Positions 3,045 to 40,926 are shown, counted from the first letter of the stretch. The stretch: DNA of 50,996 bases from Chiloscyllium plagiosum (GCF_004010195.1 NC_057753.1:14649366-14700361); one strand, 5' to 3'. Notes: generated from the letters alone by a model not told the origin. Numbers and translations: made by a program.

Positions 3045-3104
3045 TGAATGATGGCACCTACAAGCTTATCTTCGGAGGTGGGACCAGACTGATAGTGGAG
3101 CCAA
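3045..3104 (+). CDS. TRAJ: J3, family A, NDGTYKLIFGGGTRLIVEP
   Basis: RSS 3017-3044 (heptamer GGGTGTG); donor GTAAGT. Confidence 0.85.
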
Positions 3105-3460
3105 GTAAGTGTTGGGGATTGTCACAGAATAATATCCATGGGCTTGTGTTGGATAGTGATCACGGGTAGGTCAGCAGAGATAATAATACCCCAGACCACA
3201 GGTAAGGTACAGCAAGGGATATCATACTTGGGGTAACATCCCCAGATTATCTGTGGGAATGACACACCAGGAGCTCAGCTCTGAGTTGGGAAAAAGCAGA
3301 TAGTCCCGATTTCACATCAACGCTGGATTCGAAAATGCTTACAGAGAGTTAGTGTCTGTATCACAGCACTGCAGAAATGGCATGGAGTGTGCCCAAGTGT
3401 ACCCACCAGAGAATAAAGATGGCACTGGGGTGGGTTTTTGTTGAGGGGCGCAGTGCTGTG

Positions 3461-3520
3461 TGAATGTTGGAGGTACTAAGCTTACCTTTGGAGAGGGGAC
3501 AAAGTTAACTGTGGAACTAA
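3461..3520 (+). CDS. TRAJ: J4, family B, NVGGTKLTFGEGTKLTVEL
   Basis: RSS 3433-3460; donor GTAGGT. Confidence 0.88.
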
Positions 3521-4396
3521 GTAGGTATTCACTAACACTATCACACATCTCACGTATATTGTGGGAGTTGGTGTGTATGTGTATTTTGTTTTCAGTATAA
3601 AGCATCCACTGAGGTCTCCCGACTCGAAATTTATCTTGAATATGGTCTGTTTCTGTGTCTTTGCTTTGTAGAGTATAGACGCTACATTTTCTGAGGTGAT
3701 TAGCCTGTGTGGATTGAAATGGGAATCTTCCTGAGTACCTGGATCAGGGGGAAAGGTTCAGGGGAAACCCAGGATAGAATTAGAGACACCGATAAGCCCC
3801 TCAAAGCAGCCAGTCGGACAGAGGAAGCTGCTTCCACGGCGTGCATTATTTTAATAGAAATTACCATGATGTTCTCATTCATTCCTGAGCACCAAGGCGC
3901 ATGCATGTGATTTCTGTAAATCCGGAATGACGCCCGGAAATCTCCGTGTGTCCCAGGTCCACACTTGTCCAGGGCACACTCAAACCATTCAGCTAAATTT
4001 TTAGCAGTGTTATCAGATAGACAGTGGGGTCCAGAGAGGGAAGGAGGGAGTCAGGGGAGTCTATTCGTGTTAAGTGAATCAGCTATACCTTATGTTGGAA
4101 CAGTAAATTTCACAGAATGATCACTGACTCTGGGAGTTTGGGTCAGACTGCTTAAGGATGTGTGCGACTGTTACGAGTGGGAATTTTAGGAAGGCAGTCA
4201 TAATTGAGAGTGGGATCCAAGGGATGTTGTGTTCCATGTGGATAAATTTAAAAAAAAATACGATTCGAACTCGTGTAAGCAAAGTCTTAAGGAATTAACG
4301 TGAAATGGGTGCCATCTGGTTGAAATTGCTTTGGTGTACAGACAGAGAACAGTCACTAACTGGGAGAGAGTTTTTGTCAGGAAGCGTAAGGATGTG

Positions 4397-4453
4397 TGAA
4401 TGCTAACAGCAAGCCTATCTTCGGAGGTGGGACCAGACTGATAGTGGAGCCAA
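4397..4453 (+). CDS. TRAJ: J5, family A, NANSKPIFGGGTRLIVEP
   Basis: RSS 4369-4396 (heptamer GGATGTG); donor GTAAGT. Confidence 0.85.
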
Positions 4454-4822
4454 GTAAGTGTTGGGGATTGTCACAGAATAATGTCCACAGACTTTGTGTT
4501 GGATAGCGAAAACGAGTAGGTCAGCAGAGATAATAATTCCCCAGACCACAGGTATGGTACAGCAAGGGATACCGTACCTAGGGTAACGTCCCCCAGATGG
4601 TGGGGCTGACACACCAGGAGCTCTGCTCTGTGTTGGCATCAGGAGAACCTGATTTATATATTAACAAAACAGGCCCTAATTCACTGTTTTAGAAATTAAT
4701 TGCACAGGGTTAGCGTTTGTGGGACAGCTTTAAAGAATGGTATGGCATGTACCCACTAGAGATTAAAGACGGTAATGATCACTCCACTAGGGTGGGATTT
4801 TGCTGAGGGGCGCAGCGCTGTG

Positions 4823-4885
4823 TGAATGTTGGAGCTGGTAATAAGCGTATCTTTGGAGAGGGGACAGAGTTAACCGTGGAAGCAA
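4823..4885 (+). CDS. TRAJ: J6, family B, NVGAGNKRIFGEGTELTVEA
   Basis: RSS 4795-4822 (GGATTTTGC / CGCTGTG); donor GTAGGT. Confidence 0.85.
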
Positions 4886-5675
4886 GTAGGTATTCAGTAA
4901 TACCTTTACACTGCTTATGTACATTATGTGAGTGCGTATCTCTGCAAAAAGCACCTCGACGTAGATTATGCCTCTTTGTTGTACAGAGTGTAGACCCTAC
5001 AATGTCTGAGGTCATTAGCCTGTGCGGACTGAAATGGTAATCCTCGCGAGTACCTGGATCGGGGGAAAAGTTCAGGACAAACCCAGGATAGAGTTAGGTA
5101 GTGAAACCTAGGTGGCTCGTCAAAGCAGGAACACTGTCCAGTTGGATAAAGAAAGCTGATCCCGCAGAGTACATGTTACAATAGAAATTATTGTGGGGTT
5201 CTCATTAATTCCTGAGCAGCAAATCGATGCGTGTGGTATCTGTAAATAGACAACAGTAGAAATCCCCAGGTCTGCCCTTGTCCAGGCCACACTCAAACCA
5301 CTGAGATATGATTCATTAATGTCGTTAGGGGGATAAAGGAAGCCAGAGAGGGAGGAGAGTCTATCTGTGTTAAAGGCATACACTCTCCCTTAGACTGCAA
5401 CAGTATATCTCACAGAATAATAACTGACTCTGGGAGACTGTTTAGGAACGTGTGTGTATATTGTGAATGGGAAGCAATCTTTTGGTATTCAATCCTGATT
5501 GAGTATGGAATCCACTAAGCGTTTAATTCTGAGTGGACAGCTTTAGGAAACTGATTCCAACTCATGAAAATAATGTCTTGATCAATGTATGTAAAATGGT
5601 GTACCCATCAGAGAATAAAGATGGTAATGATCACTCCTCTGGGGTGGGTTTTTTGCTGAGGGGCGCAGTGCTGTG

Positions 5676-5738
5676 TGAATGATGGAGCTGGTTATAAGCG
5701 TATGTTTGGACAGGGGACAAAGTTAACCGTGGAGCCAA
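5676..5738 (+). CDS. TRAJ: J7, family B, NDGAGYKRMFGQGTKLTVEP
   Basis: RSS 5648-5675; donor GTAGGT. Confidence 0.88.
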
Positions 5739-6360
5739 GTAGGTATTCAGAAACACCCCGACACAGCTTATGTCTACTATGAGGGTTTGTGTGTGTCTCC
5801 TCTGTCTGTGCAAAGCATCCATTAAGATCTCCTCATCTCAAATTCATCCTGAATGTCAGTCAGTTTCTGCCATTTTGCTTGATAGAGCATAGACCCTACA
5901 ATGTCTGAGGCGATTAGTCTGTGTGGACTGAAGTGGGAATCTTCCTGAGTACCTGGATCAGGGGGAATAATTCAGGGGAAACCCAGGATAGATAGCGAAG
6001 CTGAGAGGCAACTCAAAGCAGGAACACCGTCCAGCTGGATAGAGAAATCTCATACATTCATTGAAAAGAAATTATCGTGATGTTCTTAGGTAGAGCAGAG
6101 TAACATCCCCAGATTAGCGGTGCGGCTGACTCACCAGGCACCCTGCTTTGAGTTGGGAATGGAAGATTTTTTTTCTATTCAACATAAAAAGCCTTAATTC
6201 ACATCATCACTTGTTTAGAAAGTACTTCCACGGGTTTAGGGCCTTAAACACAATATTGAAGATTGGCATAGCGTGTGCCCCAAGTATACCCACCTGAGAA
6301 TACAGATGGTAATGAACGCTCCCACTGGGGTGGGTTTTTGCTGAGGGGCGCAGTGCTGTG

Positions 6361-6423
6361 TGAATGCTGGAGGTGCTACTAAGCTCATCTTTGGAGAGGG
6401 GACAAAGTTAACGGTGGAGCCAA
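6361..6423 (+). CDS. TRAJ: J8, family B, NAGGATKLIFGEGTKLTVEP
   Basis: RSS 6333-6360; donor GTAGGT. Confidence 0.9.
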
Positions 6424-7109
6424 GTAGGTATTCAGTAACGCCTCCAGCCCGTCCACTTTCTGATCCATTTTTTTTTATGGTCCCTATCCTGCCTGCAACG
6501 GTCCTCTCGATTTTCCCACCAGTGTCTTGATTTTTTTTCTCTCTCTCTCTCTCTCTGAGGCGAGGGGGACTGGCTAAGACGTACAATACCAGGCGAGTCG
6601 GGATTGGAGGGGATCCTGTATGAGCTTTAGCGGGATATTTGAGGGGAATGGAATGAGAGAGTTGGATGAAGAGAGCAGCAGACTTGCACTGAGAGGCGTA
6701 AATACTGGAGCTGACCGGTCGGAGTGAGAGACCTCTTTCCATCGTGTGAGTTATTTTCATTATCCACCGCCTTTTGACAAATCCCTCGACATCTGAGAAA
6801 TATTAGAGGCAGGTGGTGATTTCCGCTGACGTTTAGCAATCCTCGATCTTTTCCCATCTCCATACCATTTCCTGTGGAGGAGACAGAGGACTAAGATGTT
6901 TCTCTTTTTTTTTTCCAATATGATTTGTACAGTTATGACATGTGGAAGAAATACTGTATTGGAGGCAGTTGAGTGGAGGGTGACTCAGTTGATGCCAGAC
7001 ATGAGTCGGTTTTGTCTTAAGGTGGGAGACAGACTGGATTCGGCCCAATGGTGGTGGCATTGAATAATAAGATAAACTCTCAGTGATGTTAAAGGGGGGG
7101 GGGGGGGGG

Positions 7110-7127
7110 NNNNNNNNNNNNNNNNNN
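7110..7127. other. Assembly gap (18 N) next to a poly-G run
   Basis: Run of n. Confidence 1.
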
Positions 7128-7420
7128 GGTTATAGTTCCAGGATAAGGGGAAACGCAACTCGGAAGCAGAGACTGGGAGTAATGACTTCCCTCAAAGGGT
7201 GAATCTGTGGAACTCACTCCCCCCCCCCCCCCCTCTCCCCGGAGTGTGTTAGGTGCTGGGACGTAAAACAAATGTAACGCTGGACAGATTCTGGAACAGG
7301 AGGGTGATGGGGACATGGCAGGGAGAGCGGAGTTATGGCCTGGATGAAATTCGGCACAAACGCATGGAATGCAGGAGCAGGTGTGAGGGGCTGAATGGCC
7401 TCCTACTGCTCCTATGTTCT
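7128..7420 (+). mobile_element. Old CR1-type LINE 3' end fragment
   Basis: GTGAATCTGTGGAACTCACT...GGGCTGAATGGCCTCCTACTGCTCCTATGTTCT resembles a CR1 3' end; paralogous copy at ~20640-21020. Confidence 0.6.
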
Positions 7421-7466
7421 GTGTACCCACATCGGCTGGGTTTTTATGAAGGCCTGTCAGGCTGTG

Positions 7467-7529
7467 TGAACTATGGAGCTGGTACTCAGCTTATCTTTGG
7501 AGAGGGGACAAAGTTAACCATGGAGCCAA
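7467..7529 (+). CDS. TRAJ: J9, family-B-like, NYGAGTQLIFGEGTKLTMEP
   Basis: Distinct RSS 7439-7466 (GGTTTTTAT-gaaggcctgtca-GGCTGTG); donor GTAAGT. Confidence 0.85.
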
Positions 7530-7707
7530 GTAAGTATTCAGCAACAGCTTTCCCCGGCTTATACTTGTTACAGGAGTTGGCATTTTTTCAGCACAAAGAA
7601 GTCCTCAAGTGAAATTCATCTCTAATATCAGACTGTCTCTGCCCCTTTGCTGTGTAGAGTGCATTCCCTACAACGTCTGAGTCGATTAGCCTGTGTGGAT
7701 TGAAGTG

Positions 7708-8036
7708 TACAATGTTAAAAATCACACAACACCAGGCTATAGTCCGACAGGTTTAATTGGAAGCGCTAGCTATCGGGGCGCCGCTCCGTCATCAGGTGGC
7801 ATATATTGAAAGAGACCGGATTGTTAGTTAACTTTCAATATATCATTTCAGTTCTATCACACCGTAAACTTTTGCTATAAATTCTGTGTCTTAAAATCTT
7901 ATTCTCCACTGCCACCTGATGAAGGAGCGGTGCCCCGATAGCTAGCGCTTCCAGTTAAACCTGTCGGACTATAACCTGGTGTTGGGTGATTTTTAACTTT
8001 GTCCACCCTAGTTCAACACCGGCATCTCCAAAATCA
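7708..8036. mobile_element. Penelope-like insert with ~93-bp inverted arms and 12-bp TSD
   Basis: Arms 7708-7800 and 7911-8002 are reverse complements; TGGATTGAAGTG at 7696-7707 and 8037-8048; each arm holds a hammerhead-like core. Confidence 0.8.
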
Positions 8037-8717
8037 TGGATTGAAGTGGGAATCTTTCTGAGCTCCTGAATCGGGGGAAAGGTGCAGGGGAAATCAAGTT
8101 TAGAATTAGATAGTCAAACAGAGAGGCTCCACAAAACAGGAATACTGTCCGGTTGGAGACAGAAACCTGCACCAGCAGAGTACACTATTTCCCTAGAAAT
8201 GATCATGAATTCCTCATCCAATTCCTGAGCACCAAATCAATGCACGTGATTTCTGTAAATGTGAACTGGGCAATTAGAAATATCCAGGTCCTCCCTTGTC
8301 CAGGTCATTCTCAAACTACTAAGGTATGATTGATTAATGCCGTTCTATAAATAGAAGAGGCCAGAGAGGGAGAGAGGGTGGAGAGTCTATCTCTGTTAAA
8401 TGGAGAGACTTTACCTTCGGTTACAACAGTAAATCTGACAGAGTAAACAGCTGACTGGGTCAGGCTGTTGCAGGCTGAGTGTGTACTTTGCGAAGAGGGA
8501 AGCTAATTTTTGGAAGTGGGTTGTGATTGAGGACGTAACCCAGTGAGAGTTGGATTCTGAATGGACAACTTTAGGACCAATAATTCCAACTCATCAAAGC
8601 AATCCATTAGTACTGTACGGAAAATGGGTGCCATCCCAGGGAGACATCACAATGGTGGGGCAGACAAAGACCACCAGTAATTCGGAAAGGGATTTTGTCA
8701 GGACGTCTAGGGCTGCA

Positions 8718-8748
8718 TGAAACAGGCTTTTCTTCGGAGGTGGGACCA
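8718..8748 (+). pseudogene. TRAJ: J10, family-A relic (..LFFGGGT), 3' half and donor deleted
   Basis: Degenerate RSS 8690-8717 (heptamer GGCTGCA); joined directly to downstream spacer sequence. Confidence 0.75.
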
Positions 8749-8995
8749 TTGGTGGGACTGATACACCAGGCACTGCTCTGAGTTGGGACCAGGAAGACAT
8801 TTATTTCATAAACAGCAGATAGGCTCTAATTGACATCCATGCTGCTTTAGGAAGTATTTCGATAGGGTTAGTGTCTGTGGGACAGCATTGAAGAATGGCA
8901 TAGCAGGTGCCCCAAGTGTAAGCACCAGAGAATAAACACCAGAGATAATGATCACACCATTGGGGTGGGTTTTTGCTGAGGGACACAGTGCTGTG

Positions 8996-9058
8996 TGAAT
9001 GCTGGAGTTGGTCATCAGCTTATCTTTGGAAAGGGGACAAAGTTAACCGTGGAAGCAA
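8996..9058 (+). CDS. TRAJ: J11, family B, NAGVGHQLIFGKGTKLTVEA
   Basis: RSS 8968-8995; donor GTAGGT. Confidence 0.9.
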
Positions 9059-9102
9059 GTAGGTATTCAGTAACACCTCTACACTGCTTACATCCATTAT
9101 AT

Positions 9103-9142
<40 letters not shown>

Positions 9143-10006
9143 TTTATGTCTGTAAAAAGAATCTGCTGAGATCTCCACGTGCGAAATTCAAACTGTGTGT
9201 GTGTGTGTGTGTGTGTGTATTTTATGTCTGTAAAAAGAATCTGCTGAGATCTCCACGTGCGAAATTCATCTTGAAAATGGGACGGTTTACGCCTCTTTGC
9301 TTTATAGAATGTAGACCCTACAATATCTGAGGGGATTCACATTGTGTGGATTGAAGTGGTAATCTTCCTGAGAACCTGGATAAAGGGGATATGATCAGGA
9401 GAATCCAATGATACAATTAGATAGCTCATCCAGGAGAGGATTCTCCAAGCAGGGACATTACAGGACATTATTTCTATAGAAATTATCGTGAGCTCCTTAC
9501 TACGTCTGGAGCACCAAAGCGATGTGTTGATTTCTTTAAATATGTCCTTGAAATCTCCATGGGTCCCAGGCCTGCCCTTGTCCAGGCTACACTCAAACCA
9601 CTGAGAGATGGTTCAATAATATGGTTAAGGGGATAGAGTAGGCCAGAGAGAGAGACAGAGAGAGAGTGAAGAGAGTCCATCTGTAACAAATGGAGAGACT
9701 CTACCATAGATTGTAACAACAAATGTCCCAGAATAATAACTGACTCTGGATGTTTGGGTCAGAAGGTTTTTAGAACGTGTGTGAATATTGTGAGAGAGAA
9801 ACAATTTTTGGAAGTCGTTTCCAAACCAGAAGGGACTGCACTGACTTTTGCTTCTGAGTGGACAGCTTCAGGAAACTGATCAGAACTCTTGAAAGCAATG
9901 TCATGGGTAATGTAAATGAAGTGGCTGCCTGGCTGCAATCACATTGGGGGGGGACAGACACAGAACTAACTCAGAGAGGGTTTTTGTCAGGAAGTGTCAG
10001 GCTGTG

Positions 10007-10063
10007 TGAGTGGTAACTTCAAGCTTATCTTCGGAGGTGGGACCAGACTGATAGTGGAGCCAA
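10007..10063 (+). CDS. TRAJ: J12, family A, SGNFKLIFGGGTRLIVEP
   Basis: RSS 9979-10006; donor GTAAGT. Confidence 0.9.
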
Positions 10064-10429
10064 GTAAGTGTTGGGGATTGTCACAGAATAACGCCCACGG
10101 GCTTGTGTTGGATAGCGACCATGAGTAGGTCAGCAGGGATAATAATTCCCCAGACTGTAGATACGGTACAGCATCCCCAGATTATCGGTGGGGCTGACCC
10201 ACCAGGAGCTCTGCCCTCAGTAGGGATCCAGAGAATCTTTATTTCAAAAACGGCAGTTCTGCTATAATTCACATCCATGCTGCTTTAGGAAGTATTTCGA
10301 TAGCGTTAGTGTCTGTGGGACAGCATTAAATAATGGCATAGTATGTGCCCCAAGTATATCCACCAGAGAATAAAGATGGTAATGATCACTCCACTGGGGT
10401 GGGTTTTTGCTGGGGGACGCAGTGCTGTG

Positions 10430-10492
10430 TGTATGCTGCAGCTGGTAATCTGCTTATCTTTGGAAAGGGGACAAAGTTAACCGTGGAGCCAA
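10430..10492 (+). CDS. TRAJ: J13, family B, YAAAGNLLIFGKGTKLTVEP
   Basis: RSS 10402-10429; donor GTAGGT. Confidence 0.9.
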
Positions 10493-11376
10493 GTAGGTAT
10501 TCAGAAAAAAAACCCTACACAGCTTATGTCTATTTTGTGACTGTGTATGTGAGTGAGAGAGAGTGTGTGTGAGACTCTGTGTGTGTGTGTGTCTGTCTGT
10601 CTGTCTGTGTTTTATCTCTCTACAGAGAATCTGCTGAGATCTCCACGTGTGAAATTCATCTTGAAAATGGGACGGTTTACAATGTAGACCCTACAATATC
10701 TGAGGGGATTCACATTGTGTGGATTGAAGTGGTAATCTTCCTGAATGTCTGTATAAAGAGGATATGATCAGGAGAATCCAATGATACAATTAGATAGCTC
10801 GTCCAGGAGAGAATTCTCCAAGCAGGGACATTGCAGGACATTATTTCTATAGAAATTATCGTGAGCTCCTTACTACGTCTGGAGCACCAAAGCGATGTGT
10901 TGATTTCTTTAAATATGAACTAAGTCCTTGAAATCTCCGTGGGTCCCTTGTCCAGGCTACACTCAAACGACTGAGAGATGGTTCAATAATATGGTTGGGG
11001 GATAGAGTAGGCCAGAGAGAGAGAGACAGAGAGAGAGTGAAGAGAGTCCATCTGTAACAAATGGAGAGACTCTACCGTAGATTGTAACAAGAAATGTCCC
11101 AGAATAATAACTGACTCTAGAATTTTGGGTCAGAAGGTTTTTAGAACGTGTGTGAATATTGTGAGAGAGAAACAATTTTTGGAAGTTGTTTCCAAGCCAG
11201 AAGGGACTGCACTGACTTTTGCTTCTGAGTGGACAGCTTCAGGAAACTGATCAGAACTCTTGAAAGCAATGTCATGGGTAATGTAAATGAAGTGGCTGCC
11301 TGGCTGCAATCACATTGGGGGGGACAGACACAGAACTAACTCAGAGAGGGTTTTTGTCAGGAAGTGTCGGGCTGTG

Positions 11377-11436
11377 TGAATACTGGCTACGACCAGCTTA
11401 TCTTCGGAGGTGGGACCAGACTGATAGTGGAGCCAA
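11377..11436 (+). CDS. TRAJ: J14, family A, NTGYDQLIFGGGTRLIVEP
   Basis: RSS 11349-11376; donor GTAAGT. Confidence 0.9.
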
Positions 11437-11812
11437 GTAAGTGTTGGGAGATTTTCACAGAATAATGTCCACGAACTTGTATTGGATAGCAACCACGAGT
11501 AGGTCAGTAGGGATAATAATTCTCCAGACCATAGATACAGTATAGCAAGGGATGCTGTACCCCCAGATTATCGGTGGGGCTGACCCACCAGGCTCTCTGC
11601 TCTGAGTCAGGATCAGGATAACATTTATTTAAAAAGAAAGATCAGCCCTAATTCACATCAGCGCTGGTTCAGAAAACACTTCCACAGGGTTAGTGTCTGT
11701 ATCACAGCATCGCAGAATGGCATAATGAGTACCCCAAGTGCACCACCAGAGAAGAAAGGTGGTAATGAACACTCCACTGGGGTGGGTTTTTGCTGAGGGA
11801 CGCAGTGCTGTG

Positions 11813-11875
11813 TGAATGCTGGAGTAGCTAATCAGCTTATCTTTGGAGAGGGGACAAAGTTAACCGTGAAACCGA
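11813..11875 (+). CDS. TRAJ: J15, family B, NAGVANQLIFGEGTKLTVKP
   Basis: RSS 11785-11812; donor GTAGGT. Confidence 0.9.
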
Positions 11876-12000
11876 GTAGGTATTCAGTAACATCTCTGCA
11901 CTCTTTATCGCTGGTGTGTGTGTGTCTGTGTGTGTGTGAGTGTGAGTGTGTGTGAGTGTGTGAGAGAGAGAGTATGTGTGTGAGAGAGAGAGAGAGAGAA

Positions 12001-12184
12001 CAATCCACTGGAATGTCTGAATTACTCCCGGTGCAACGTGGAAAAGAGGTAATGATTAGGAAGGTGGTATAGTTCAACACGTGGTTAAAGAACTAGTACG
12101 GGGACAGAGTTTCAACTTTTGGATCATTCGGTTCTCTTCCAGGGCAAGTGAGAGCTTTCAAAAATGGACAGGTTGCATCTTAAC
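12001..12184 (+). mobile_element. Degenerate CR1 ORF1 (SGNH esterase-like) fragment inside a (TG/AG)n tract
   Basis: Translates, with stops and frameshifts, as SELLPV..FNTWLKN..LDH..LFQGK..MDRLHLN. Confidence 0.55.
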
Positions 12185-12401
12185 GTGTGTGTGAGAGTGA
12201 GTGTGTGTGAGAGAGAGAGAGTGTGTGTGTGTGAGAGAGAGTGAGTGTGCGTGTGTGAGTATTTTTCTCTGCACAAACCATCCACTGAGATTTCCAGATG
12301 TGAAATTCATCATCCAACCTGGACATCTGGACGGTTTTTGCCTCTTGTTTTATAGAGTACAGACCTGGCAATATATGAGACGATTAGTGTGTGTGTGGCT
12401 A

Positions 12402-13192
12402 AGACCATAACACCATGAGACGTAGGAGCAGAAATCAGGCCATTCAGCCCATCGAGTCTGCTCCTCCATTCAATCATGGCTGATAAGTTTCTCAACCACA
12501 TTCTCTATGTAACCCTTGATCCCCTTGATACTCAAGAACCTATCTATCTCAATCTTAAATATACTCAGTGACCTGGCTTTCATAGCCTTCTGTGGCAATG
12601 AATTCCATAGATTCACCATTCTCTGGATGAATAGGTCTCTCTGTATCTCCCGTTCCAAAAGGTCCAACCCATTACTCTAAGGCTGTGCCCTCGGTTCATA
12701 ATCTCTCCTACCAACAGAAACATCTTCCCAACATCCAATCTGTCCAGGCCATTCAGTATTCCCTGTGTTTCAATCTGATCCCCCCTTATCCTTCTAAACT
12801 CCATCGGGTATAAACCCAGAGAGCTCAAATGTTCCTCATATGTTAAGCTTTTCATTACGGGTACCATTCCCATAGAGCTCCCCTGAACACGTCCCAAAGC
12901 CAGTACATCCCTCATGGGATACGGGGCTTAAAACCACACACAATACTCCAAATGTGGTCTGACCAGAGCCTCAGAAGTACATCCCTGCTTTTATATTCAA
13001 GTCCTCTCAAAATAAATGCCATCGTTGCATCTGCCTTCCTAATTACTGACTCAACCTGCAAGTTTACCTTGGGAGAATTCTGAACTGGAATGCCCAAGTC
13101 TCTTTGAACTTCAAACTTCCGAATTTTCTCCCCATTTGGAAAAGTGTCCATGCCTCTATTCTTCCTGCCAAAGTGCATCACCTCACACTTTC
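12402..13192 (-). mobile_element. CR1-type LINE 3' fragment
   Basis: Minus ORFs MHFGRKNRG..RGLEYKSRDVLLRL and LGRVQ..LGLYPMEFRRIRGD. Confidence 0.88.
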
Positions 13193-16139: not shown

Positions 16140-16174
<35 letters not shown>

Positions 16175-30925: not shown

Positions 30926-30988
30926 TGAATACTAGAACTGGTTATAAGCTTATCTTTGGAGAAGGGACAAAGTTAACCGTGGAGCCAA
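30926..30988 (+). CDS. TRAJ: J41, family B, NTRTGYKLIFGEGTKLTVEP
   Basis: Heptamer 30919-30925; nonamer altered (GGGTTTTTC); donor GTAGGT. Confidence 0.82.
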
Positions 30989-31060
30989 GTAGGTATTCAG
31001 AAACACCCCAACACAGCTTATGTCTATTATGAGAGTTTGTGTCTGTCTATTCTAGCTGTG

Positions 31061-31368
31061 GGTGGCACGGTGGCACAGTGGTTAGCACTGCTGCCTCACA
31101 GCGCCTGAGACCCAGGTTCAATTCCCGCCTCAGGCGACTGACTGTGTGGAGTTTGCACGTTCTCCCCCTGTCTGCGTGGGTTTCCTCCGGGTGCTCCGGT
31201 TTCCTCCCACAGTCCAAAGATGTGCAGGTCAGGTGAATTGGCCATGCTAAATTGCCCATAGTGTTAGGTAAGGGGTAAATGTAGGGGTATGGGTGGGTTG
31301 CGCTTCGGCGGGTCGGTGTGGACTTGTTGGGCCGAAGGGCCTGTTTCCACACTGTAATGTAATGTAAT
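31061..31368 (+). mobile_element. Full-length HE1-type (V-SINE) elasmobranch SINE
   Basis: tRNA-like head TGGCACAGTGG...GGTTCAATTCC; V-domain TGCGTGGGTTTCCTCCGGGTGCTCCGGTTTCCTCCCAC; (TGTAA)n tail; CTGTG on both sides. Confidence 0.9.
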
Positions 31369-32161
31369 CTGTGCAAAGCACCCATTAAGATCTCCTCATC
31401 TGAAAGTCATTTTGAATGTCAGGCAGTTTCTACAGATTTGCTTTATAGAGTATAAACCCTACAGTGTCAGAGGTGATTAGTCTGTGTGGACTGAAGTGGG
31501 TATCTTTCTGAGTACCTGGGTCGGGGGGGAATGGTTCAAGGGAAACCCAGGATAGAGTTAGATAGGGAAGCTGAGAGGCAACTCAAACCAGGAATACTGT
31601 GCAGTTGGATAGAGGAACCTCGTACATTCATTGCAAAGAAATTATCATGATGTTCTCATGAATTCCTGAGCATCAAGTCAAAGTGTTTGATTCCTGGATA
31701 TATGAACTGCGGCCTTGAAGTGTCAGTACAGCCCAGGTCAGCATCTCTCCAGGGCACACTCACACCACTGAGATAGGATTCATTAATGGGGTAGGTGAAT
31801 GAGACGGGCAAAGTGGAGGCAGTGAGGAGAGTCTATCTGTGTTAAAGGTCTACAATCTACCTTAGATTGTAACAGTAAATCTCACAGAATAATACCTGAC
31901 TCTGGGAGTCTGGGTCAGACTGTTTAAGGACGTGTGTGAATATTGTGAGAAGGAAGGTAATTTTTGGAAGTGGATCACGATTGAGAGTGGAATCCAATGA
32001 GTGTTCGATTCTGAGTGGACAACTTTAGGAAACTGATTCCACTGCATGGAAGTAATTTCATGGATAAAATGAGTGCCGTCTGGTTGAAATTGCATTGGTG
32101 GTACAGGCAAAGTACAGACACGAAGTGGGGAAGGGTTTTTGTCAGGATGTGTAGGGCTGTG

Positions 32162-32218
32162 TGAGTGATGGCTACACCTTTATCTTTGGAGGTGGGACCA
32201 GACTGATAGTGGAGCCAA
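32162..32218 (+). CDS. TRAJ: J42, family A, SDGYTFIFGGGTRLIVEP
   Basis: RSS 32134-32161; donor GTAAGT. Confidence 0.9.
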
Positions 32219-32567
32219 GTAAGTGTTGGTACTTGCACAGAATAATGTCCATGGGCTTGTGTTGGATAGCGATCACGAGTAGGTCAGCAGAGATAATAAT
32301 TCCCCAGACCACAGATACGGTACACCAAGGGATATTGTACTCGGGGGAACATCCCCAGATTATGTTGGGGCTGACACACCGGGTGCTCTGCTCTGAGTTG
32401 GGATCAGAAGTTTTATTTAAAGTGGGAGGTAGACCATAATACACATCAGTGGTGGCTAAGAAAATACTTCCGCAGTGTTAGAGACCTTATCACAGCATTG
32501 AATAATTGAGTAGCCAGTACCCCAAGTGTACCCACCAGCGCATTAAGATGGCAATGATCACTCCACT

Positions 32568-32672
32568 GATGGAGTTGGTTATAAGCATATCTTTGGAGAG
32601 GGGACAAAGTTAACCGTGGAGCTGGTTATGGACTTGTCCTGGGAGAAGGGACAAAGTTAACCGTGGAGCCAA
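32568..32672 (+). pseudogene. TRAJ: J43, RSS-less out-of-frame fusion of two family-B Js (DGVGYKHIFGEGTKLTVE / GAGYGLVLGEGTKLTVEP)
   Basis: CTCCACTG joined to ATGGAGTT with the whole RSS missing; two FR4 copies overlap at TGGAGC. Confidence 0.85.
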
Positions 32673-33531
32673 GTAGGTATTCAGAAACACCCCGACAAAG
32701 CTTATGTCTATTATGAGAGTTTATGTGTGTCCATTCTGTCGATGCAAAGCATCCATTAAGATCTCAACATGTGTAATTCATCTTGACTTTCAGTCAGCTG
32801 CTGCCATTTTGCTTTATAGAGTATAGACTCTACAGTGTCTGAGGCGATTAGTCTGTGTGGATTGAAGTGGGAATTTTCCTTAACTCCTTGGTGAGGGGGA
32901 ATGGTTCAGTGGAAACCCAGGATAGAATTCAATAGTGAAGCCGAGAGGCTCCTCAAAGCAGGAACACTGTCCAGTTGGACAGAGAAAATTCCTTCCACAC
33001 AGTACATTATTACAAGAGAAATTATCGTGATGTTCACATTAATTCCTGAGCATCAAATCAAAGTGTTTGATTTCTGGATATATGAACCGATGCTTTGAAA
33101 TCTCTGAGTGGCCGAGGTCTGCACTTGTCCAGGCCACACTCAAACCATCTATTAATGCAGTTAGGTGGATGGAGACGGGTGGAGAGGGAGACAGTGAGGA
33201 GAGTCTATTTGTGTTAACGGCATAGGCTCCAGCTCAGAGTACAACAGTAAATCTCACAGAATGATAACTGACTCTGAGAGCCTGGGTCAGACTGTTTAAG
33301 GATGTGTGCAAATATGGTGAGAGGGAAGGTAAGTTTTGGTAGTCGGTCACGATTGAGATTGCAATCCAATGAGTGTTCGATTCTGAGTGGACAACTTTAG
33401 GAAACTGATTTCAAAGCATGGAAGTAATTTCATTGATAAAATGGGTGCCATCTGGTTGAAATGGTTGTGGTGGTCCAGACAAAAACAGACAGCAACTGGG
33501 AGAGGTTTTTGTCAGGAAGTGTAGGGCTGTG

Positions 33532-33588
33532 TGAGTGATGGCTTGAAGCTTATCTTCGGAGATGGGACCAGACTGATAGTGGAGCCAA
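33532..33588 (+). CDS. TRAJ: J44, family A, SDGLKLIFGDGTRLIVEP
   Basis: RSS 33504-33531; donor GTAAGT. Confidence 0.9.
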
Positions 33589-33975
33589 GTAAGTGTTGGG
33601 GATTGTCACAGAATAATGTCCCTGGGCTTGTGTTGGATAGTGACCACGGGTAGGTCAGCAGAGATAATAATTCCCCAGACTACAGATACGGTACAGCAAG
33701 GAATACCGTACTCAGGGTAACATCCCCAGATTATCGGTGGGGCTGACACACCAGGAGTTCTTTTCTGAGTTGGGATCAGGAGAATTTAAAACAAAAAAGC
33801 AAATAGGCCCTAATTCACATCAGCACTGGTTTAGAAATTACTTCCACATTGTTAGTGTCTATATCACAGCATTGCAGAATGGCATAGCGTGTGCCTCAAG
33901 TGTACCCACCAGAGATTAAAGATGGTAGTGATCACGCGACTGGGGTGGGTTTTTGCTGTGGGGCGCAGTGCTGTG

Positions 33976-34038
33976 TGTATGCTGGAACTAATTATAAGCT
34001 TATCTTTGGAGAGGGGACAAAGTTAACCGTGGAGCCAA
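33976..34038 (+). CDS. TRAJ: J45, family B, YAGTNYKLIFGEGTKLTVEP
   Basis: RSS 33948-33975; donor GTAAGT. Confidence 0.9.
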
Positions 34039-34203
34039 GTAAGTATTCAGATACACCCCAACGCAGCTTATGTCTATTATGTGAGTTTGTGTGTGTCTAT
34101 TTTATCTGTACAAAGCATCAACTAAGACTTCCACACTTGAATTTCCTCTTGAATGTCAGACTATTTCGGCCTCTTTGCTTTATACAGTGTAGACCCTACA
34201 ATG

Positions 34204-34389
34204 GAGAAAGTGAGGACTGCAGATGCTGGAGATCAGAGCTGAAAATGTGTTGCTGGAAAAGCGCAGCAGGTCAGGCAGCATCCAGGGAACAGGAGAATCA
34301 ACGTTTTGGGCATGAGCCATTCCTGAAGAAGGGCTCATGCCCGAAACGTCGATTCTCCTGCTCCTTGGATGCTGCCTGACCTGCTGCGC
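34204..34389. mobile_element. Palindromic Penelope-derived insert with 14-bp TSD
   Basis: TAGACCCTACAATG at 34190-34203 and 34390-34403; arms AGCGCAGCAGGTCAGGCAGCATCCA / TGGATGCTGCCTGACCTGCTGCGCT. Confidence 0.85.
34318..34356 (+). ncRNA. Minimal type-I hammerhead ribozyme motif (Penelope-associated)
   Basis: CTGAAGA-A-GGGC-tcat-GCCC-GAAA-CGTC; core intact, stem I weak, stem III minimal. Confidence 0.6.
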
Positions 34390-34976
34390 TAGACCCTACA
34401 ATGTCAGAGATTATTAGCCTCCGTGGATTGAAGTGGGAATCTTCCTGAGTAACTGGATCAGGGGTTCCCATTCATTCCTGAGCATCAAATCGAAGTCTGT
34501 GATTTCCATAAATAGGAACTGACACCTTGAAATCTCCATGTGTCCCAGTTCTGCACTTGTCCAGGCCACACTCACGCCACTGAGATATGGTTCATTAATG
34601 TGGTAAGGTGGATAGAAACGGGCTGCAGGGGAGACAGTCTCTTTTTGTGAAATGGATAGGTCTACCTTCGATTACAATAGTAAATCCCACAGAATAATAA
34701 CTGAATCCGGGAGTTCTGGGTCAGACTGTTTAAGAACTTGTGTGAATATTGTCAGAGGGAAGCAAATTTTTGGAAGTTGGTCACGATTGACAGCGGAATC
34801 CAATGAGTGTTGGACTCCGAATGGACAACTTTAGGAAAGTAATTTCAACACATAAAAGTAACGTCATGGGTAAAGTGCATAAAATGGGTGCCATCTGGTT
34901 GAAATAGCATTGGTGGTACAGACACAGAACAGTCACCAACTGGGAGAGGGTTTTTGTCAGGAAGTGTAGGGCTGTG

Positions 34977-35033
34977 TGAATATCAACTTCAAGCTTATCT
35001 TCGGAGGTGGGACCAGACTGGTAGTGGAGCCAA
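34977..35033 (+). CDS. TRAJ: J46, family A, NINFKLIFGGGTRLVVEP
   Basis: RSS 34949-34976; donor GTAAGT. Confidence 0.9.
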
Positions 35034-35429
35034 GTAAGTGTTGGGGATTGTCACAGAATAATGTCCATTTGCTTGTGTTGGATAGCGACCACAAGTAGGT
35101 CAGCAGACATAATAATTCTCCAGACCACAGATACAGCGCAGCAAGGGATACCGTACTCAGGGGAACATCCCCAGATTATCGGTGGGGCTGACCCACCAGG
35201 CGCTCTGCTCTGAGTTGGGATTAGGAGAATTTTTAATTTAAATATAACCAGGAGATAAGGCCCAATTCACATCATTGCTGGTTTTGAAAGTACTTGAACA
35301 GGGTTAGTGTGTGTATCACAGCATTGTCGAATTGCAGAGCGTGTACTTCTTGTTTACCCACCAGACCATAAAGGTAGTAACAATCAAGGCGGGAGGGGTG
35401 GGATTTTTGCTGAGGGGTGCAGTGCTGTG

Positions 35430-35492
35430 TGAATGATGGAACTGGTTATAAGCGTATCTTTGGTGAGGGGACAGAGTTAATCGTGGAACCGA
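35430..35492 (+). CDS. TRAJ: J47, family B, NDGTGYKRIFGEGTELIVEP
   Basis: RSS 35402-35429; donor GTAAGT. Confidence 0.87.
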
Positions 35493-36499
35493 GTAAGTAT
35501 TCAGTTACACCTCCATACAGCTTACGCCAGCACGTGTGTGTGTATGTGTGTGTGTGTGTGAATTTTGTCTTTACAAAGAGATGTCCACATTTGACATTCA
35601 TCTTTAATGTCAGATGGTTTCTGTCCCTTTGCTTTACAGAGTATAGACCCTACAGTGTCTGAGGGGATTAGCCTATAGGCATTGAAGTGGGAATTTTCCT
35701 GAAGTCCTGGATCACGGGGAAAGGTTCTGGGGAAACCCAGGATAGAATTAAATAGTGAAGCCGAGAGGTTCCTCAGAGCCGGAACACCGCTCAGTTGGAC
35801 AGAGAAGGCTGCTTTCACAGACATCATTATTTCAATAGAAACTATTGTGTGGTTCTCATAATTCCTGAGCACCTAATCAATGGGTGTGATTCCTGTAAAT
35901 AGGAGCTGATGCCGTGAAATCGCCGTGCGTCCCAGAGCTGCACTTGTCCAGGCTATATTCAAACTGCACATTGCTCAGAATGGACACAACGTGTCCATCA
36001 CGCTGCACTAACCTTTCACACCCAATGTCTTATTGATGAGGGAAAGGGACGGTAGAGAAGGAAGGAAAAGGAAGCAAATCCTGCTCTCCCCATGCCACTA
36101 ACTCTTGGAACATTCTTTCCCACTGTCATATGATACATTCATGTGTTTCGGTGGACACAGGGACAGACAGACAGTGTTAAATGGATAGACTCTCCCTTAG
36201 ATTGCAACAGTAAATCTCACAGGATAATAACTGATTCTGGGAGTTTGGGTCAGACTATTTGAGGACGTGTGTGAGTATTGTCAGTGGAATGCAAATTTTT
36301 GGAAGTTGGTTGTGGTTCAGGCTGGAACCCAGTGAGTATTGGATTCTGAATGGACAACTTTAGGAAACTGATTCCAACTCATAAAAACAATGTCGTGAGG
36401 ATTGTACAGCTAATGGGTGCCATCTGCTTGAAATAGCATTGGTGGTACAGACACAGAATAGTCTGGGAGAGGGTTTTTGTCAGGAAGTGTAGGGCTGTG

Positions 36500-36556
36500 T
36501 GAATAACAACTTCAAACTTATCTTCGGAGGTGGGACCAGACTGATAGTGGAGCCAA
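36500..36556 (+). CDS. TRAJ: J48, family A, NNNFKLIFGGGTRLIVEP
   Basis: RSS 36472-36499; donor GTAAGT. Confidence 0.9.
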
Positions 36557-37011
36557 GTAAGTGTTGGGGATTGTCACAGAATAATGTCCACGGGCTTGTG
36601 TTGGATAGCAACCATGAGTAGGTCAGCAGAGATAATAATTCCCCAGACTGCAAACACGGTACAGCAAGGGATACCGTACTCGGGACAACATCTGTGTTAA
36701 AGGCAACCATTTTGCCTTAGATTGCAACAATAAATCTCACAGAATAATACCTGACTCTGGGGGTCTGGGTCAATCTGTTTAAGGATGTGTGTGAATATGG
36801 TGAGACGGAAAGTAATTTTTGGAAGTTAGCCGCGATTGAGATCGCAATCCAATGTGTCTTCGATTCTGAGTGGACAACTTTAGGAAACTGATTCCATGGA
36901 AGTAATTTCATGGATAAAATGGGTGCCATTTGGTTGAAATGGTTGCAGTGGTCCAGACACAGAACAGTCACAAACTGGGAGAGGGTTTTTGTCAGGAAGT
37001 GTAGGGCTGTG

Positions 37012-37068
37012 TGAATAACGACTTCAAACTTATCTTCGGTGGTGGGACCAGACTGATCGTGGAGCCAA
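37012..37068 (+). CDS. TRAJ: J49, family A, NNDFKLIFGGGTRLIVEP
   Basis: RSS 36984-37011; donor GTAAGT. Confidence 0.9.
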
Positions 37069-37445
37069 GTAAGTGTGAGGGATTGTCACAGAATAATGTC
37101 CACGGGCTTGTGTTGGATAGCGATCATGAGTAGATCAGCAGAGATAATAATTCCCCAGACCACAGATACGGTACAGCAAGGGATGCCGTACTCAGTGTAA
37201 CATCCCCAGATTATCGGTGGGACTGACCCACCAGGCACTCTGCTCTGGGTTGGGATGACACTTTTATTTAATGGGAGGTGGACACTAATTCACATCAGTG
37301 GTGACTAAGAAAATACCTACACAGTGTTAGAGACCTGATCACAGCATTGAACAGTTGCAGTACACCCAAGTGTACCCACCAGAACATAAAGGTGGTAATG
37401 ATCACTCCACTGGGGTGGGTTTTTGCTGAGGGACGCAGTGCTGTG

Positions 37446-37508
37446 TGAATGATGGAGTTGGTTATAAGCATATCTTTGGAGAGGGGACAAAGTTAACCGT
37501 GGAGCCAA
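37446..37508 (+). CDS. TRAJ: J50, family B, NDGVGYKHIFGEGTKLTVEP
   Basis: RSS 37418-37445; donor GTAGGT. Confidence 0.9.
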
Positions 37509-37837
37509 GTAGGTATTCAGAAACACCCTGACACAGCTTATGTCTATCATAAGAGTTTGAGTTTGTCCACTCTATCTGTGCAAAGCATCCATTAAGATCT
37601 CCTCATCTGAAATTCACCTTGACTGTCAGGCGGACTCTACGTTTTTATTTATAGAGTATAGATCCTACAATGTCTGAGGAAATTAGCCTGTGTGGATTGT
37701 AACGGGAATTTCCCTGAGTACCTGGATTAGGGGGAATGGTTCGGGGGAAACCCAGGATAGATTTTGATAGCAAAACAGAGAGGCTGCTCAAAGCAAGAAC
37801 ACTGTCCAGCTGGACAGAGAAAACTCCTTCCACAGAG

Positions 37838-37852
37838 TGATAGCGGAGCCAA
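37838..37852 (+). pseudogene. TRAJ: J51, 3' stump of a family-A J with intact donor
   Basis: TGATAGCGGAGCCAA|GTAAGT fused to spacer sequence; RSS and most of the J deleted. Confidence 0.75.
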
Positions 37853-38204
37853 GTAAGTGTTGGGGATTGTCACAGAATCATGTCCATGGGCTTGTGTTGG
37901 ATAGTAGGTCAGCAGAGATAATAATTCCCCAGACCACAGCTACAGCACAGCAAGGGATACCGTACTCAGGGTGACATCCCCACATTATCGGTGGGACGGA
38001 CATACCAGCAGCTCTGCTCTGAGTTGGGATCAGGAGATGGGCCCCCTAACTCACATCAGTGCTGGATTAGAAAGTATTTCCACAGGGTTAGTGTTAGTGG
38101 GACAGCTTTGAGGAATGGCATAGCAAGTGTACCCACAAGTGAATAAAGATGGTAATGATCACGCCGCTGGGGTGGGTTTTTTTGCTGAGGGGCGCAGTGC
38201 TGGG

Positions 38205-38267
38205 TGAATGCTGAAGGTGCAAATCAGCTTATCTTCGGAGAGGGGACAAAGTTAAGCGTGGAGCCAA
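38205..38267 (+). pseudogene. TRAJ: J52, family B, NAEGANQLIFGEGTKLSVEP; open frame but heptamer TGCTGGG
   Basis: The essential terminal GTG (CAC) is mutated at 38198-38204. Confidence 0.72.
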
Positions 38268-39136
38268 GTAGGTCTTCAGGTATACCCCTACACAGCTTAT
38301 GTCTATTCTGTGAGTTTGTGTGTGTCCATTTTATCTGTACAAAACATCCACTAAGACTTCCACATGTGAAATTCCTCTTAAATATCTGGCTGTTTCCGTC
38401 CCTTTGCTTTAGACAGTGTAGATCCTATAATGTCTGAGGTGATTAGCCTTTGTGGGACTCATTCTGAGTACCTGGATCAAGGGGAAAGGTTCAGGAGAAA
38501 CCCAGGATAGAGTTAGATACAGACACTAATAGGCTCCTCAAAGCAGGAACACTGTCCAGTTGGACAGAGAAAGTTGCTTCCACAGAATACATTATCTGAA
38601 TACAAGTTATCACAAAGTTCTGATTAATTCCTGAGCACCCAAATCAATGCACGTGATTTCTGTAACGTGAAATCTCCATGTGGCCGGGTCCGCGCTTATC
38701 CAGTCCACAGTCAAACCACTCAGATATGATTGATTTATGTAGGTAGGTGGGTAGCAGGGACCAGAGAGAGAGAGAGAGAGAGAGAGAGTGAGGAGAGTCT
38801 ATCTCCGTTAAATGGATGCACTCGACCTCAGATTGCAAAAGTAAATCTCACAGAATAGTAGCTGACTCTGGAAGTATGGGTCAGACTATTTAAGGATGTG
38901 TGTGAATATTGTGAGAGGGAAGCAGGTTTCTGGAAGTTGTTCGTGACTGAGAGTGGAATCCAATGATTGTTACATTGTGAATGGACACCTTTTGGAAACT
39001 GATTTCAACTGATGAAAGCAATGTCATGAGTAATATCCCCAAAATGGGTGCCATCTGGCTGAAATGGTACCAGGGGTACTGACAAAGAACACTCACTAAC
39101 TCAGTGATGGTTTTTGTCAGGAAGTGTAGGGCCGTG

Positions 39137-39196
39137 TGAATTATGATAGCTACAAGCTTCTCTTTGGAGGTGGGACCAGACTGATCGTGCAGCCAC
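39137..39196 (+). CDS. TRAJ: J53, family A, NYDSYKLLFGGGTRLIVQP
   Basis: RSS 39109-39136 (heptamer GGCCGTG); donor GTAAGT. Confidence 0.85.
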
Positions 39197-39429
39197 GTAA
39201 GTGCTCACGGAATAATGTCCACAGGTTTGTGTTGGATAGCGATGATGAGTGACCAATCCTGGGAGAACGTGGAGTAAACTTTGGAAGGGAAATCTCTTAC
39301 GCTCAACAATGTTCATCTTTCCCCCATGGGACGAGACAGGCAGATGGTTTCACGAAATTAGGAAACCATTAGTGGCCCTAGCGTCCAGGCTATTAGATTG
39401 GAGATGCATCTATTATGAGATAAACTTTC

Positions 39430-39750
39430 ACCAGTCCATGCCGAACATAATCCCAAACTACTCTAGTCCCTCCTGCCCATTCCTGGCCCGTATCCCTCCA
39501 AACCTTTCCTACTCATGCCTCCATCCAAATGTCGTTCAAACGTTGTAATTGTACCCATACCCATCACTTCCTTAAGAGGTTCATTCGACACGTGCACCAC
39601 TCCCTGCGTTAAAAAATTCCCAACATGTCCCTTTTGAATCTTTCTCCTCTCACCTTAAAAGTGTGGCCCCGTCTCTTGAAAGCCCACACGCCCTAGGGAA
39701 AGCACTCTGCCATTCACCTTATCAATTCCACGCATGATTTTCTAAAACTT
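39430..39750 (-). mobile_element. Old CR1/HER1-type 3' fragment
   Basis: Similar to 1870-2170 (TATCCCTCCAAACC...TCTCACCTTAAA...ATGATTTT). Confidence 0.65.
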
Positions 39751-39804
39751 CGATGTCATTAGCACCGGATGTAACGTGGTGGGCTGCCCGCTTTTAAATT
39801 GCTC

Positions 39805-40800
39805 TGAATTGAATTGAATTGAATTTACTGCCGAGCGCACAATGAAAAGCTTTGTCTTGCGAGCAATACAGGCAGATCGCGGAGTTAATTAGCGTAGAGA
39901 AGTAAGTAATAGGTCAACAGCGGCAAACGCCAAAACACAGGCACAGGTGAAGGTTAAGAGTTTGTGAGCCCATTCAGTATTCTAACAACAGTAGGGGAGA
40001 AACTGTTTTGAAACCGGCTGGTGCATGTGTCCAGGCTTCTCCCCGATGGTAGAGGTTGTAGGAAAAACATTGCCGGGGTGGGATGGATCTTTGAGAATGC
40101 TGGTGGCCTTTCCTTGACAGCGGGGCCTGGTAGGTGGATTCTATAGATGGGAGATTGGGCCTTTGTGATTATCTGGGCCGAGTTCACCACTCTCTGTAAC
40201 CGCCTCCGGTTTTGGTTGCCATACCAGGGAGTGATACACCCAGACAGAGTGCTCTCGATGGCGCACCTATAAAAGTTGGCAAGGGGGATTCACCGTCATG
40301 CCCAAATTTCCTCAGCTGCCCGAGGAAGAAGAGACGTTGTTGGGCCTTTGTAACCAGTGCGTCCACATGAAGAGTCCGAGAAAGCATGTTGTGGATGACC
40401 AGTCCACTCGTTGCTGTTAATGTGTAGGGGGATGTAACATCCCGCCGAAAGTCAATAATGAGTTCCTTGGATTTGCCGGCATTGAGAGCTAGGTTGTTCT
40501 CAGGGCACCATTTTTCCAGGTCTTCCACCTCCCGGCTGTAGTCTGTTTCATCGCTATCTGAGATTCGACCAGTGGTGGTGTCAACAGAGAACTTGTAAAT
40601 GGCATTAGTCTGGTATTTGGCGACGCAGTCATGGGTATACAGTGAGCACAGTAGGGGGCTGAGTACGCACCCCTTGGGGGGGGCTCCAGTGTTGAGTGTT
40701 AGTGAGGATAAGCTACTGTCCCCAATCTTCACTGATTGTGGCCTGTGGGTCAGGAAACTGAGGGTCCAGTTGGCGAGAGTGGGGCTTAGTGCGAGATCAC
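39805..40800 (-). mobile_element. Rex1/Babar-like LINE 3' fragment
   Basis: ORF 40184-40822(-) [36 protein letters not shown]; (TGAAT)n tail at 39805-39825. Confidence 0.8.
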
Positions 40801-40866
40801 TGGAAGTACAGATAAAGAACAAGGACTAACTCAGAGAGGGTTTTTGTCAGGAAGTGTAGGGCTGTG

Positions 40867-40926
40867 TGAATGTTGGCATCAACAAGCTTATCTTTGGAGC
40901 TGGGACCAGACTGATAGTGAAGCCAA
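40867..40926 (+). CDS. TRAJ: J54, family A, NVGINKLIFGAGTRLIVKP
   Basis: RSS 40839-40866; donor GTAAGT. Confidence 0.9.

Follow-up and report, generated by a model that had tools for sequence, protein, structure and literature searches.

The window analysed here, 50,996 nt of the Chiloscyllium plagiosum genome (NC_057753.1, 14649366 to 14700361), carries on its plus strand a tandem array of joining (J) gene segments, which by their motifs are likely those of the T-cell receptor alpha (TCR-alpha) of this shark. A cassette holding a dead J (family C) and Js of two further families, A and B, is repeated from the window start to position 40926. In these recently duplicated Js, the acceleration of the codons for complementarity-determining region 3 (CDR3) is real, moderate (approximately 1.5- to 2-fold) and specific to amino acid changes: replacement changes run at about twice the rate of the neutral flank, while silent changes do not. 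Judging from this pattern of substitution, diversifying selection for duplicates that encode a new CDR3-alpha loop is the probable cause.

The Js were located with a six-frame motif scan and with ungapped and BLAST searches of the window. A total of 53 copies of families A and B (25 and 28, respectively) was catalogued, and six broken copies, with the heptamer, splice donor or recombination signal sequence (RSS) lost, a frameshift or a deletion, were set aside, leaving 47 intact Js (23 A and 24 B). Each family A J has a 28-nt RSS (nonamer, 12-nt spacer, heptamer) on its 5' side and GT on its 3' side. In family A, J nt 3-14 of the 57-nt class and J nt 3-17 of the 60-nt class were taken as the variable CDR3 codons, and in family B, J nt 3-20 of the 63-nt class. 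An initial annotation of this DNA had proposed that divergence is concentrated in the codons after the heptamer, through diversifying selection and/or a targeted germline process. Its limits (the first A J starting at 3045 and the last ending at 40926) and its peptides (NDGTY at 3045, NANS at 4397, SGNF at 10007, NTGYDQ at 11377, NENTY at 14363 and SDITN at 22264) were recovered, as were the intact J lengths of 57, 60, 63 and 66 nt in whole-codon steps, all 47 being multiples of three. The codons after the heptamer do differ in nearly every copy, all 23 A Js and 21 of the 24 B Js having distinct variable peptides.

Trees were built from the flank, RSS and framework region 4 (FR4), and branch lengths were refitted on the flank alone. 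The maximum-likelihood (ML) fits cover 38 of the 47 intact Js; those left out were six with less than 200 nt of alignable flank and three B Js of other lengths. Pairwise differences (p) were 0.19-0.21 in the neutral flank, 0.35-0.38 (A) and 0.24-0.27 (B) in the CDR3 codons, 0.11-0.14 (A) and 0.16-0.22 (B) in the RSS spacer, and 0.05-0.10 in FR4. By ML, the CDR3 evolved at 1.9 (A, 57-nt class), 2.3 (A, 60-nt class) and 1.4 times the flank rate (B, 63-nt class; confidence interval (CI) 0.96-1.87, not significant alone), the spacer at 0.6 (A, CI including 1) and 0.8 times (B), FR4 at 0.22-0.45 times and the heptamers at 0.14-0.34 times. The CDR3 codons were therefore more divergent than both the spacer, the comparison on which the initial annotation had staked its proposal, and the flank. 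Its description of spacer and FR4 as almost fixed was only partly borne out: it holds in part for the A spacer but not for the B spacer, and FR4 is fixed at the amino acid level only, with a synonymous rate of 0.6-0.9 times the flank and a ratio of nonsynonymous to synonymous rates (omega) of 0.15-0.31. Purifying selection acts on the heptamer, the nonamer, the 5' TG and FR4, and much of the visual contrast between the CDR3 and the RSS and FR4 is its product. Because the RSS and FR4 are constrained, the neutral flank is the proper yardstick.

Within the CDR3, per-site diversity across the aligned cassettes is raised at codon positions 1 and 2, the third positions being quiet, and pairwise replacement differences (pN 0.29-0.44) exceed both silent differences (pS 0.08-0.20) and the flank. 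In a flank-scaled codon model, the nonsynonymous rate was 2.17, 3.12 and 1.84 times the flank in the A 57-nt, A 60-nt and B 63-nt sets (A57, A60 and B63), each with a CI above 1, and the synonymous rate was 1.01, 0.26 and 0.35 times. Jointly, the nonsynonymous rate was 2.21 (1.74-2.76) and the synonymous rate 0.47 (0.17-0.97) times the flank, giving an omega of 4.7 (likelihood-ratio test (LRT) 19.5, p = 1e-5). In a null made from flank pseudo-codon windows, none of 20000 draws reached the joint LRT or rate, and singly A60 exceeded all 231 and B63 all 254 null windows. Star trees and trees from the upstream or the downstream flank alone give the same result, and on CDR3-weighted trees, a worst case in which CDR3 homoplasy is minimised, the joint nonsynonymous rate was 1.52 (1.17-1.95) against a synonymous rate of 0.31 (p = 3e-5). 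Allele counts that need no tree were above the flank at positions 1 and 2 in all three sets (P 0.002-0.01) and at position 3 in none. Of 22 pairs closest on both flanks, a single one shows a synonymous CDR3 codon difference, and the four closest pairs differ at 17 of 63 CDR3 nt versus 60 of 636 flank nt. Both the per-site diversity and the comparison of CDR3 dN/dS with the surrounding rate, which the initial annotation had suggested as checks, thus support its diversifying selection arm. The CDR3 alphabet is mostly restricted to G, A, S, T, N, D, Y, V and F, and derived residues fall outside the small/polar set in 8 of 45 cases, compared with 24 of 59 simulated cases, so that the type of residue is under purifying selection even as the CDR3 diversifies. 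Codon-shift misalignment was rejected as a cause of the excess, because the third-position register is kept and the excess persists without three shift-suspect A copies. CpG decay was rejected as well, 2 of 45 CDR3 sites being CpG.

The recent amplification of the cassette together with its dead J provides a built-in neutral control. The CDR3-equivalent of the dead J evolved at 0.89 times the flank, with a nonsynonymous rate of 1.01 times and no codon-position pattern; its FR4 omega was 1.04, and its FR4 rate is somewhat raised (1.37 times the flank), which is unexplained. The dead J thus evolves neutrally within the same cassette, and the CDR3 signal is missing from non-functional copies.

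Several points weigh against diversifying selection. The test involves only 15 codon columns, descended from two ancestral Js, and A57 alone is not significant (omega 2.1, LRT 1.6; 18.6% of 318 null windows reach this omega). The nonsynonymous rate of family B falls to 1.11 (0.74-1.62) on the CDR3-weighted tree and to 1.31 (0.83-1.94) without two divergent copies, so that family B is fragile and, in these two sensitivity runs, compatible with neutrality relative to the flank. The joint omega owes partly to the low synonymous rate, itself unexplained (null P 0.08), and the dead J CDR3 has an omega of 1.7 too, although not a significant one. Masking of flank windows below 62% identity somewhat lowers the flank divergence, and the mosaic structure of the cassettes (see below) means that flank-scaled rates can be inflated through homoplasy. 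In addition, according to passages of PMC5931798, N/P nucleotides are present in the majority of alpha joins of the nurse shark, which makes inherited variety in the CDR3 less necessary. Separately, the third bases of CDR3 codons are C or T in 98 of 102 A codons and T or A in 141 of 145 B codons; the low silent rate possibly reflects kept AID hotspots or splice signals.

Relaxed constraint plus conversion, one of the two main rivals to diversifying selection, would let the CDR3 simply drift, the excess coming from flanks homogenised by conversion, so that the CDR3s are older, and from constrained silent sites. The mosaic cassettes, the 1.1- to 1.3-fold rate of family B in the two sensitivity runs and the synonymous rate below 1 all fit such a view, and so does the distribution of WRC/GYW motifs, which on the CDR3 side are more frequent than expected from synonymous recoding and in FR4 less frequent. 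Older CDR3s should, however, raise silent differences too, and these are lower instead, while FR4 silent sites run at 0.6-0.9 times the flank; the tree-free allele counts exceed the flank, even the worst-case trees leave the joint rate above 1, and the motif pattern lacks significance in individual Js (median P 0.16-0.65). We regard this explanation as unlikely. The motif excess on the CDR3 side, which derives from two ancestral sequences and lacks significance when taken J by J, may represent selection for somatic mutability.

The second main rival concerns recombination, for the cassettes are mosaic. Upstream and downstream flank distances correlate with a rho of 0.24 in family A (183 pairs) and 0.69 in family B (120 pairs). 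A near-identical tract shared by the neighbouring cassettes of Js 10007 and 11377 breaks off where the A CDR3 starts, 2 nt inside the J; the CDR3s of the two Js differ at about half of their bases and by one codon, and their downstream flanks are approximately 15% apart. It is one isolated instance in which a conversion or crossover ends at the RSS/J border. On the flank trees, the length class changed five times in family A and three times in family B, against less than one three-base indel expected from the flank counts, and an AAC/GGC two-base switch at A codon 3 needs four events. Moreover, the neighbouring A copies 17125, 17624 and 18993 have a common CDR3 end without being flank sisters. 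Conversion shuffles the flanks and probably CDR3 patches as well.

If such templated shuffling were the main driver, short-patch gene conversion would recombine existing codons, accompanied by in-frame codon indels and with little selection on new mutations. The repeated codon 3 switch, the excess of length changes, the shared CDR3 end and the tract that ends at an A CDR3 are what it would produce. Shuffling yields homoplasy rather than new alleles, yet the tree-free allele counts are raised, and at positions 1 and 2 only; silent and replacement differences would travel alike; and the excess persists without the shift-suspect copies. As the main driver, templated shuffling appears quite improbable, and it is probably a contributor rather than an alternative, because conversion is not expected to create an excess of replacement over silent changes or of alleles per site. 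A version in which germ cells run a templated diversifier, with breaks made at or near the J RSS by RAG starting inter-cassette conversion whose tracts stop at or patch the CDR3, seems to us very unlikely. If true, whole codons would be shuffled among Js in a germline counterpart of chicken-type gene conversion, building the inherited CDR3-alpha repertoire, with selection acting afterwards.

The targeted germline process suggested in the initial annotation is not supported. It had drawn attention to AGCT, which is indeed present in 36 of the 47 Js (about 0.2 expected per J from the window density), mostly at the K-L codon pair. In the nurse shark, TCR-alpha undergoes somatic hypermutation that is G:C-biased, hotspot-associated and tandem-rich and includes silent changes, according to passages of Ott et al. 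2018 (PMC5931798); this is a point in favour of leakage of such AID-type hypermutation into the germline, targeted to approximately 20 nt after the RSS. At CDR3 positions 1 and 2, hotspot G/C sites changed 1.5 times as fast as other G/C sites (p 0.24), and tandem changes account for 31 of 95 CDR3 changes versus 22.7 expected (observed/expected 1.37, P 0.065). The tandem excess is larger in the flank, however (410 versus 244 expected, 1.68), and 13 of 17 CDR3 doublets occupy codon positions 1 and 2. The log-likelihood is 9.7 units lower for a model in which the rate rises regardless of frame, with third positions at 0.6 times the flank, in keeping with the opposed synonymous and nonsynonymous rates. 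The spectrum matches that of the flank: changes from G/C make up 42 of 95 (44%) in the CDR3 and 864 of 1662 (52%) in the flank, and transitions 56% in both. The K-L AGCT evolved at 0.83 times the rate of flank hotspots, non-hotspot CDR3 sites, at 2.1 times their flank counterparts, are as elevated as hotspot sites, and the dead J is not elevated. Germline AID activity is thus largely refuted already, and we hold it to be highly improbable.

Alternatively, RAG could cut the J RSS in germ cells and reseal it as open-and-shut joints, altering the coding end. RAG-like germline joining is described for shark immunoglobulin (Ig) light chains in PMC2193156, and one conversion tract ends 2 nt after the heptamer. 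Against this, the coding end is the most conserved part, with TG at the start of 46 of 47 Js and hardly any variation at J positions 1, 2 and 5; lengths change within the CDR3, by whole codons; and trimmed or N-extended ends were not found among the intact copies. The dead J is no control for this reading, its RSS being dead. The chance that RAG resealing produced the pattern is slight in the extreme, and germline AID and RAG targeting are very unlikely even when taken together.

Errors of assembly, or somatic mutations in the animal that was sequenced, could in principle mimic CDR3 divergence, given that the window contains N gaps and the source tissue is unstated. For positions 22100-31100, comparison samples comprised nine runs of organism A (27-52% of sampled words) and a relative, organism B (about 12%). 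In the flanks, organism B is about 93-96% similar. Contigs of run X5, a sample code other than that of the best-matching run but not shown to be independent of the source DNA, contain J 30481-30537 with no other letters, J 22264-22323 with at most two and J 25437-25502 with at most three, which argues that these three Js are inherited sequence. Errors would also ignore codon position, and an artefact is hardly credible. At 23635 and 23641, organism B contigs from two runs have a replacement change and a 3-base insertion in the CDR3, X5 agreeing with the window among the 40 of 522 differences listed; a paralog, or a length difference between species that keeps the frame, may account for this. 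The CDR3 differences at 23635, 23641 and 26408 were not used as evidence of orthologs or polymorphism, as a paralog origin is possible and many contigs fit two places.

With regard to identity, a 12-nt-spacer RSS (11-13 allowed) precedes all 47 intact Js, the motif FGXGTX[LV]X[VI] is strict in 46 of them, and a GT donor stands at +34 from the FGXG start in 50 of the 53 catalogued copies. The nucleotide J pattern of PMC10322711, as printed in plain text (summing to 33 nt), gave no matches; with one T restored to reach 34 nt, a restoration that we infer, it matched 41 of 47 Js and nothing on the minus strand. A PDB search with one 20-aa B J returned mostly TCR alpha chains among the best 60 matches, with weak E-values and with delta and light chains too. 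No constant exon was recognised by eye in the open reading frame (ORF) list of 44300-50996, RNA run X22 gave no reads on the array from about 6% of the run, and the J motifs of the array were not found in four supplementary files of PMC5931798 or in files 1-11 of 19 of PMC10322711. In the passages of the latter (Giorgetti et al. 2023), TRAJ features are conserved in cartilaginous and ray-finned fishes, and TG microhomology between V end and J start guides joining and sets the RSS phase; the whole-codon length classes of the Js are hence a property already described. The array resembles these fish TRAJ clusters in having FGXG 34 nt before the GT donor, Js that start with TG, a fixed RSS phase, whole-codon length steps and many Js per cluster. 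The passages treat RSS phase and microhomology rather than paralog dN/dS, and the present array differs in that a single cassette carrying two J families and a dead J has undergone recent amplification, so that a rate test is possible.

Table 1. Positions of the J segments and related features in the window
Feature	Position	Strand	Remarks
Tandem J array	1..40926	+	~1.4-kb cassette repeated: dead J C, J family A, J family B; partial deletions, insertions
Further B J	1-44	+	3' end only, at window start
Family A, 23 intact Js	3045..40926	+	57 or 60 nt; FGGGTRLIVEP type
Family A Js, part 1	3045-3104, 4397-4453, 10007-10063, 11377-11436, 13867-13923, 14363-14422, 15617-15673, 17125-17184	+	
Family A Js, part 2	17624-17683, 18993-19052, 22264-22323, 23628-23684, 24995-25051, 26394-26453, 27760-27816, 30481-30537	+	
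Family A Js, part 3	32162-32218, 33532-33588, 34977-35033, 36500-36556, 37012-37068, 39137-39196, 40867-40926	+	
Family B, 24 intact Js	3461..38267	+	60, 63 or 66 nt; FGEGTKLTVEP type
Family B Js, part 1	3461-3520, 4823-4885, 5676-5738, 6361-6423, 7467-7529, 8996-9058, 10430-10492, 11813-11875	+	
Family B Js, part 2	14687-14749, 16037-16099, 18064-18126, 19429-19491, 19969-20031, 21066-21128, 22700-22762, 25437-25502	+	
Family B Js, part 3	26841-26906, 28207-28269, 29566-29628, 30926-30988, 33976-34038, 35430-35492, 37446-37508, 38205-38267	+	
Family C, dead J, 23 copies	699..38962	+	Nonamer absent; many copies with stop codons; splice donor lost in most
Family C F codons, part 1	725, 2837, 4186, 5481, 8509, 9807, 11178, 13669, ~15420, ~18794, ~22082, 23424	+	
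Family C F codons, part 2	24797, 26196, 27568, 28925, 30282, 31963, 33335, 34769, 36298, 36818, 38929	+	
Broken A J	935..993	+	Heptamer lost
Broken B J	1365..1430	+	66 nt, splice donor lost
Decayed A J relic	8665..8748	+	
Near-identical tract	9575..10009	+	96.8% over 437 nt to 10945-11379; conversion or crossover tract
Broken B J	24071..24134	+	1-nt frameshift in FR4
Broken A J	29094..29162	+	~16 nt gone: heptamer and CDR3 start
Two broken tandem B J pieces	32577..32672	+	No RSS

The cassette spacing is 1346-1402 nt across 22290-30504. A few family C copies (e.g., that with its F codon at 31963) are still open through an FGSG motif, yet have neither nonamer nor donor. The short form of the broken A J at 29094-29162 is also present in organism B contigs, and two contig records span 28864-29279 with only two gap letters. 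The lesions there and at 32577-32672 go back to short deletions and to a tandem duplication of part of a copy, close to short motifs that are repeated. Five single-copy Js lie 3' of the array (41085-44336): two of them, near 41120 and 41498, seem to be broken (a weak RSS or LG in place of FG, no GT donor), and those near 42842, 43052 and 44302 seem to be intact and older than the A/B amplification. Further 3' of the J cluster, at 43500-44090, 44930-45480 and 50690-50996, there are tandem arrays of approximately 45-nt and 33-nt units in both orientations, associated with interspersed repeats.

The V families of Ig and TCR genes evolve by birth and death, with duplication, pseudogenisation, dN above dS in the CDRs and purifying selection on the framework. 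The array has all of these features, here in J segments. Positive selection on antigen-contacting codons in such a birth-and-death family is well known, and the array is an unusually clean example of it, not a new mechanism. Under diversifying selection, a fresh J duplicate would be redundant for as long as its CDR3 is unchanged. New loops that arise by ordinary point mutation or by in-frame gain or loss of codons would be retained, and frameshifting or bulky or charged changes would be purged, with TG-microhomology joining (PMC10322711) presumably holding the RSS phase. Gene conversion and unequal crossing-over may meanwhile homogenise the flanks and move short CDR3 patches between copies, leaving their differences unerased.

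A previous report on human TCR-alpha genes (PMC13396459) describes, in the passages drawn upon here, TRAV codons under diversifying selection across the gene group, a signal of balancing selection near TRAJ37, a J with alleles of differing CDR3-alpha, and a CDR3-alpha that is largely J-determined. The human J signal is allelic and at the population level, whereas that of the array is a substitution excess among young paralogs with a pseudogene control. The nurse shark system (passages of PMC5931798) concerns the same locus type and has in common with the array the AID hotspot motifs on the CDR3 side of the J; its mutations are somatic, G:C- and hotspot-biased and tandem-rich and hit silent sites, and the germline differences of the array show none of this. 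The birth-and-death model is also mentioned in the part of bioRxiv 10.1101/2024.09.05.611428 seen, which reports, for mouse strains, no major rearrangement of the J-alpha cluster. No measurement of dN/dS among TRAJ paralogs was found in the open literature, subscription journals lying outside the scope, and J paralog divergence is not addressed in the passages of PMC13433984 and PMC12227049 consulted.

Js are short and usually old, so that such rates can rarely be measured. Our data speak against germline leakage of shark T-cell hypermutation. As TCR-alpha joining in fishes is guided by microhomology, much of the CDR3-alpha is inherited in the Js, according to passages of PMC10322711, and the array shows how a J set of this kind likely arises, namely through cassette duplication followed by selection of those duplicates with differing CDR3 residues.

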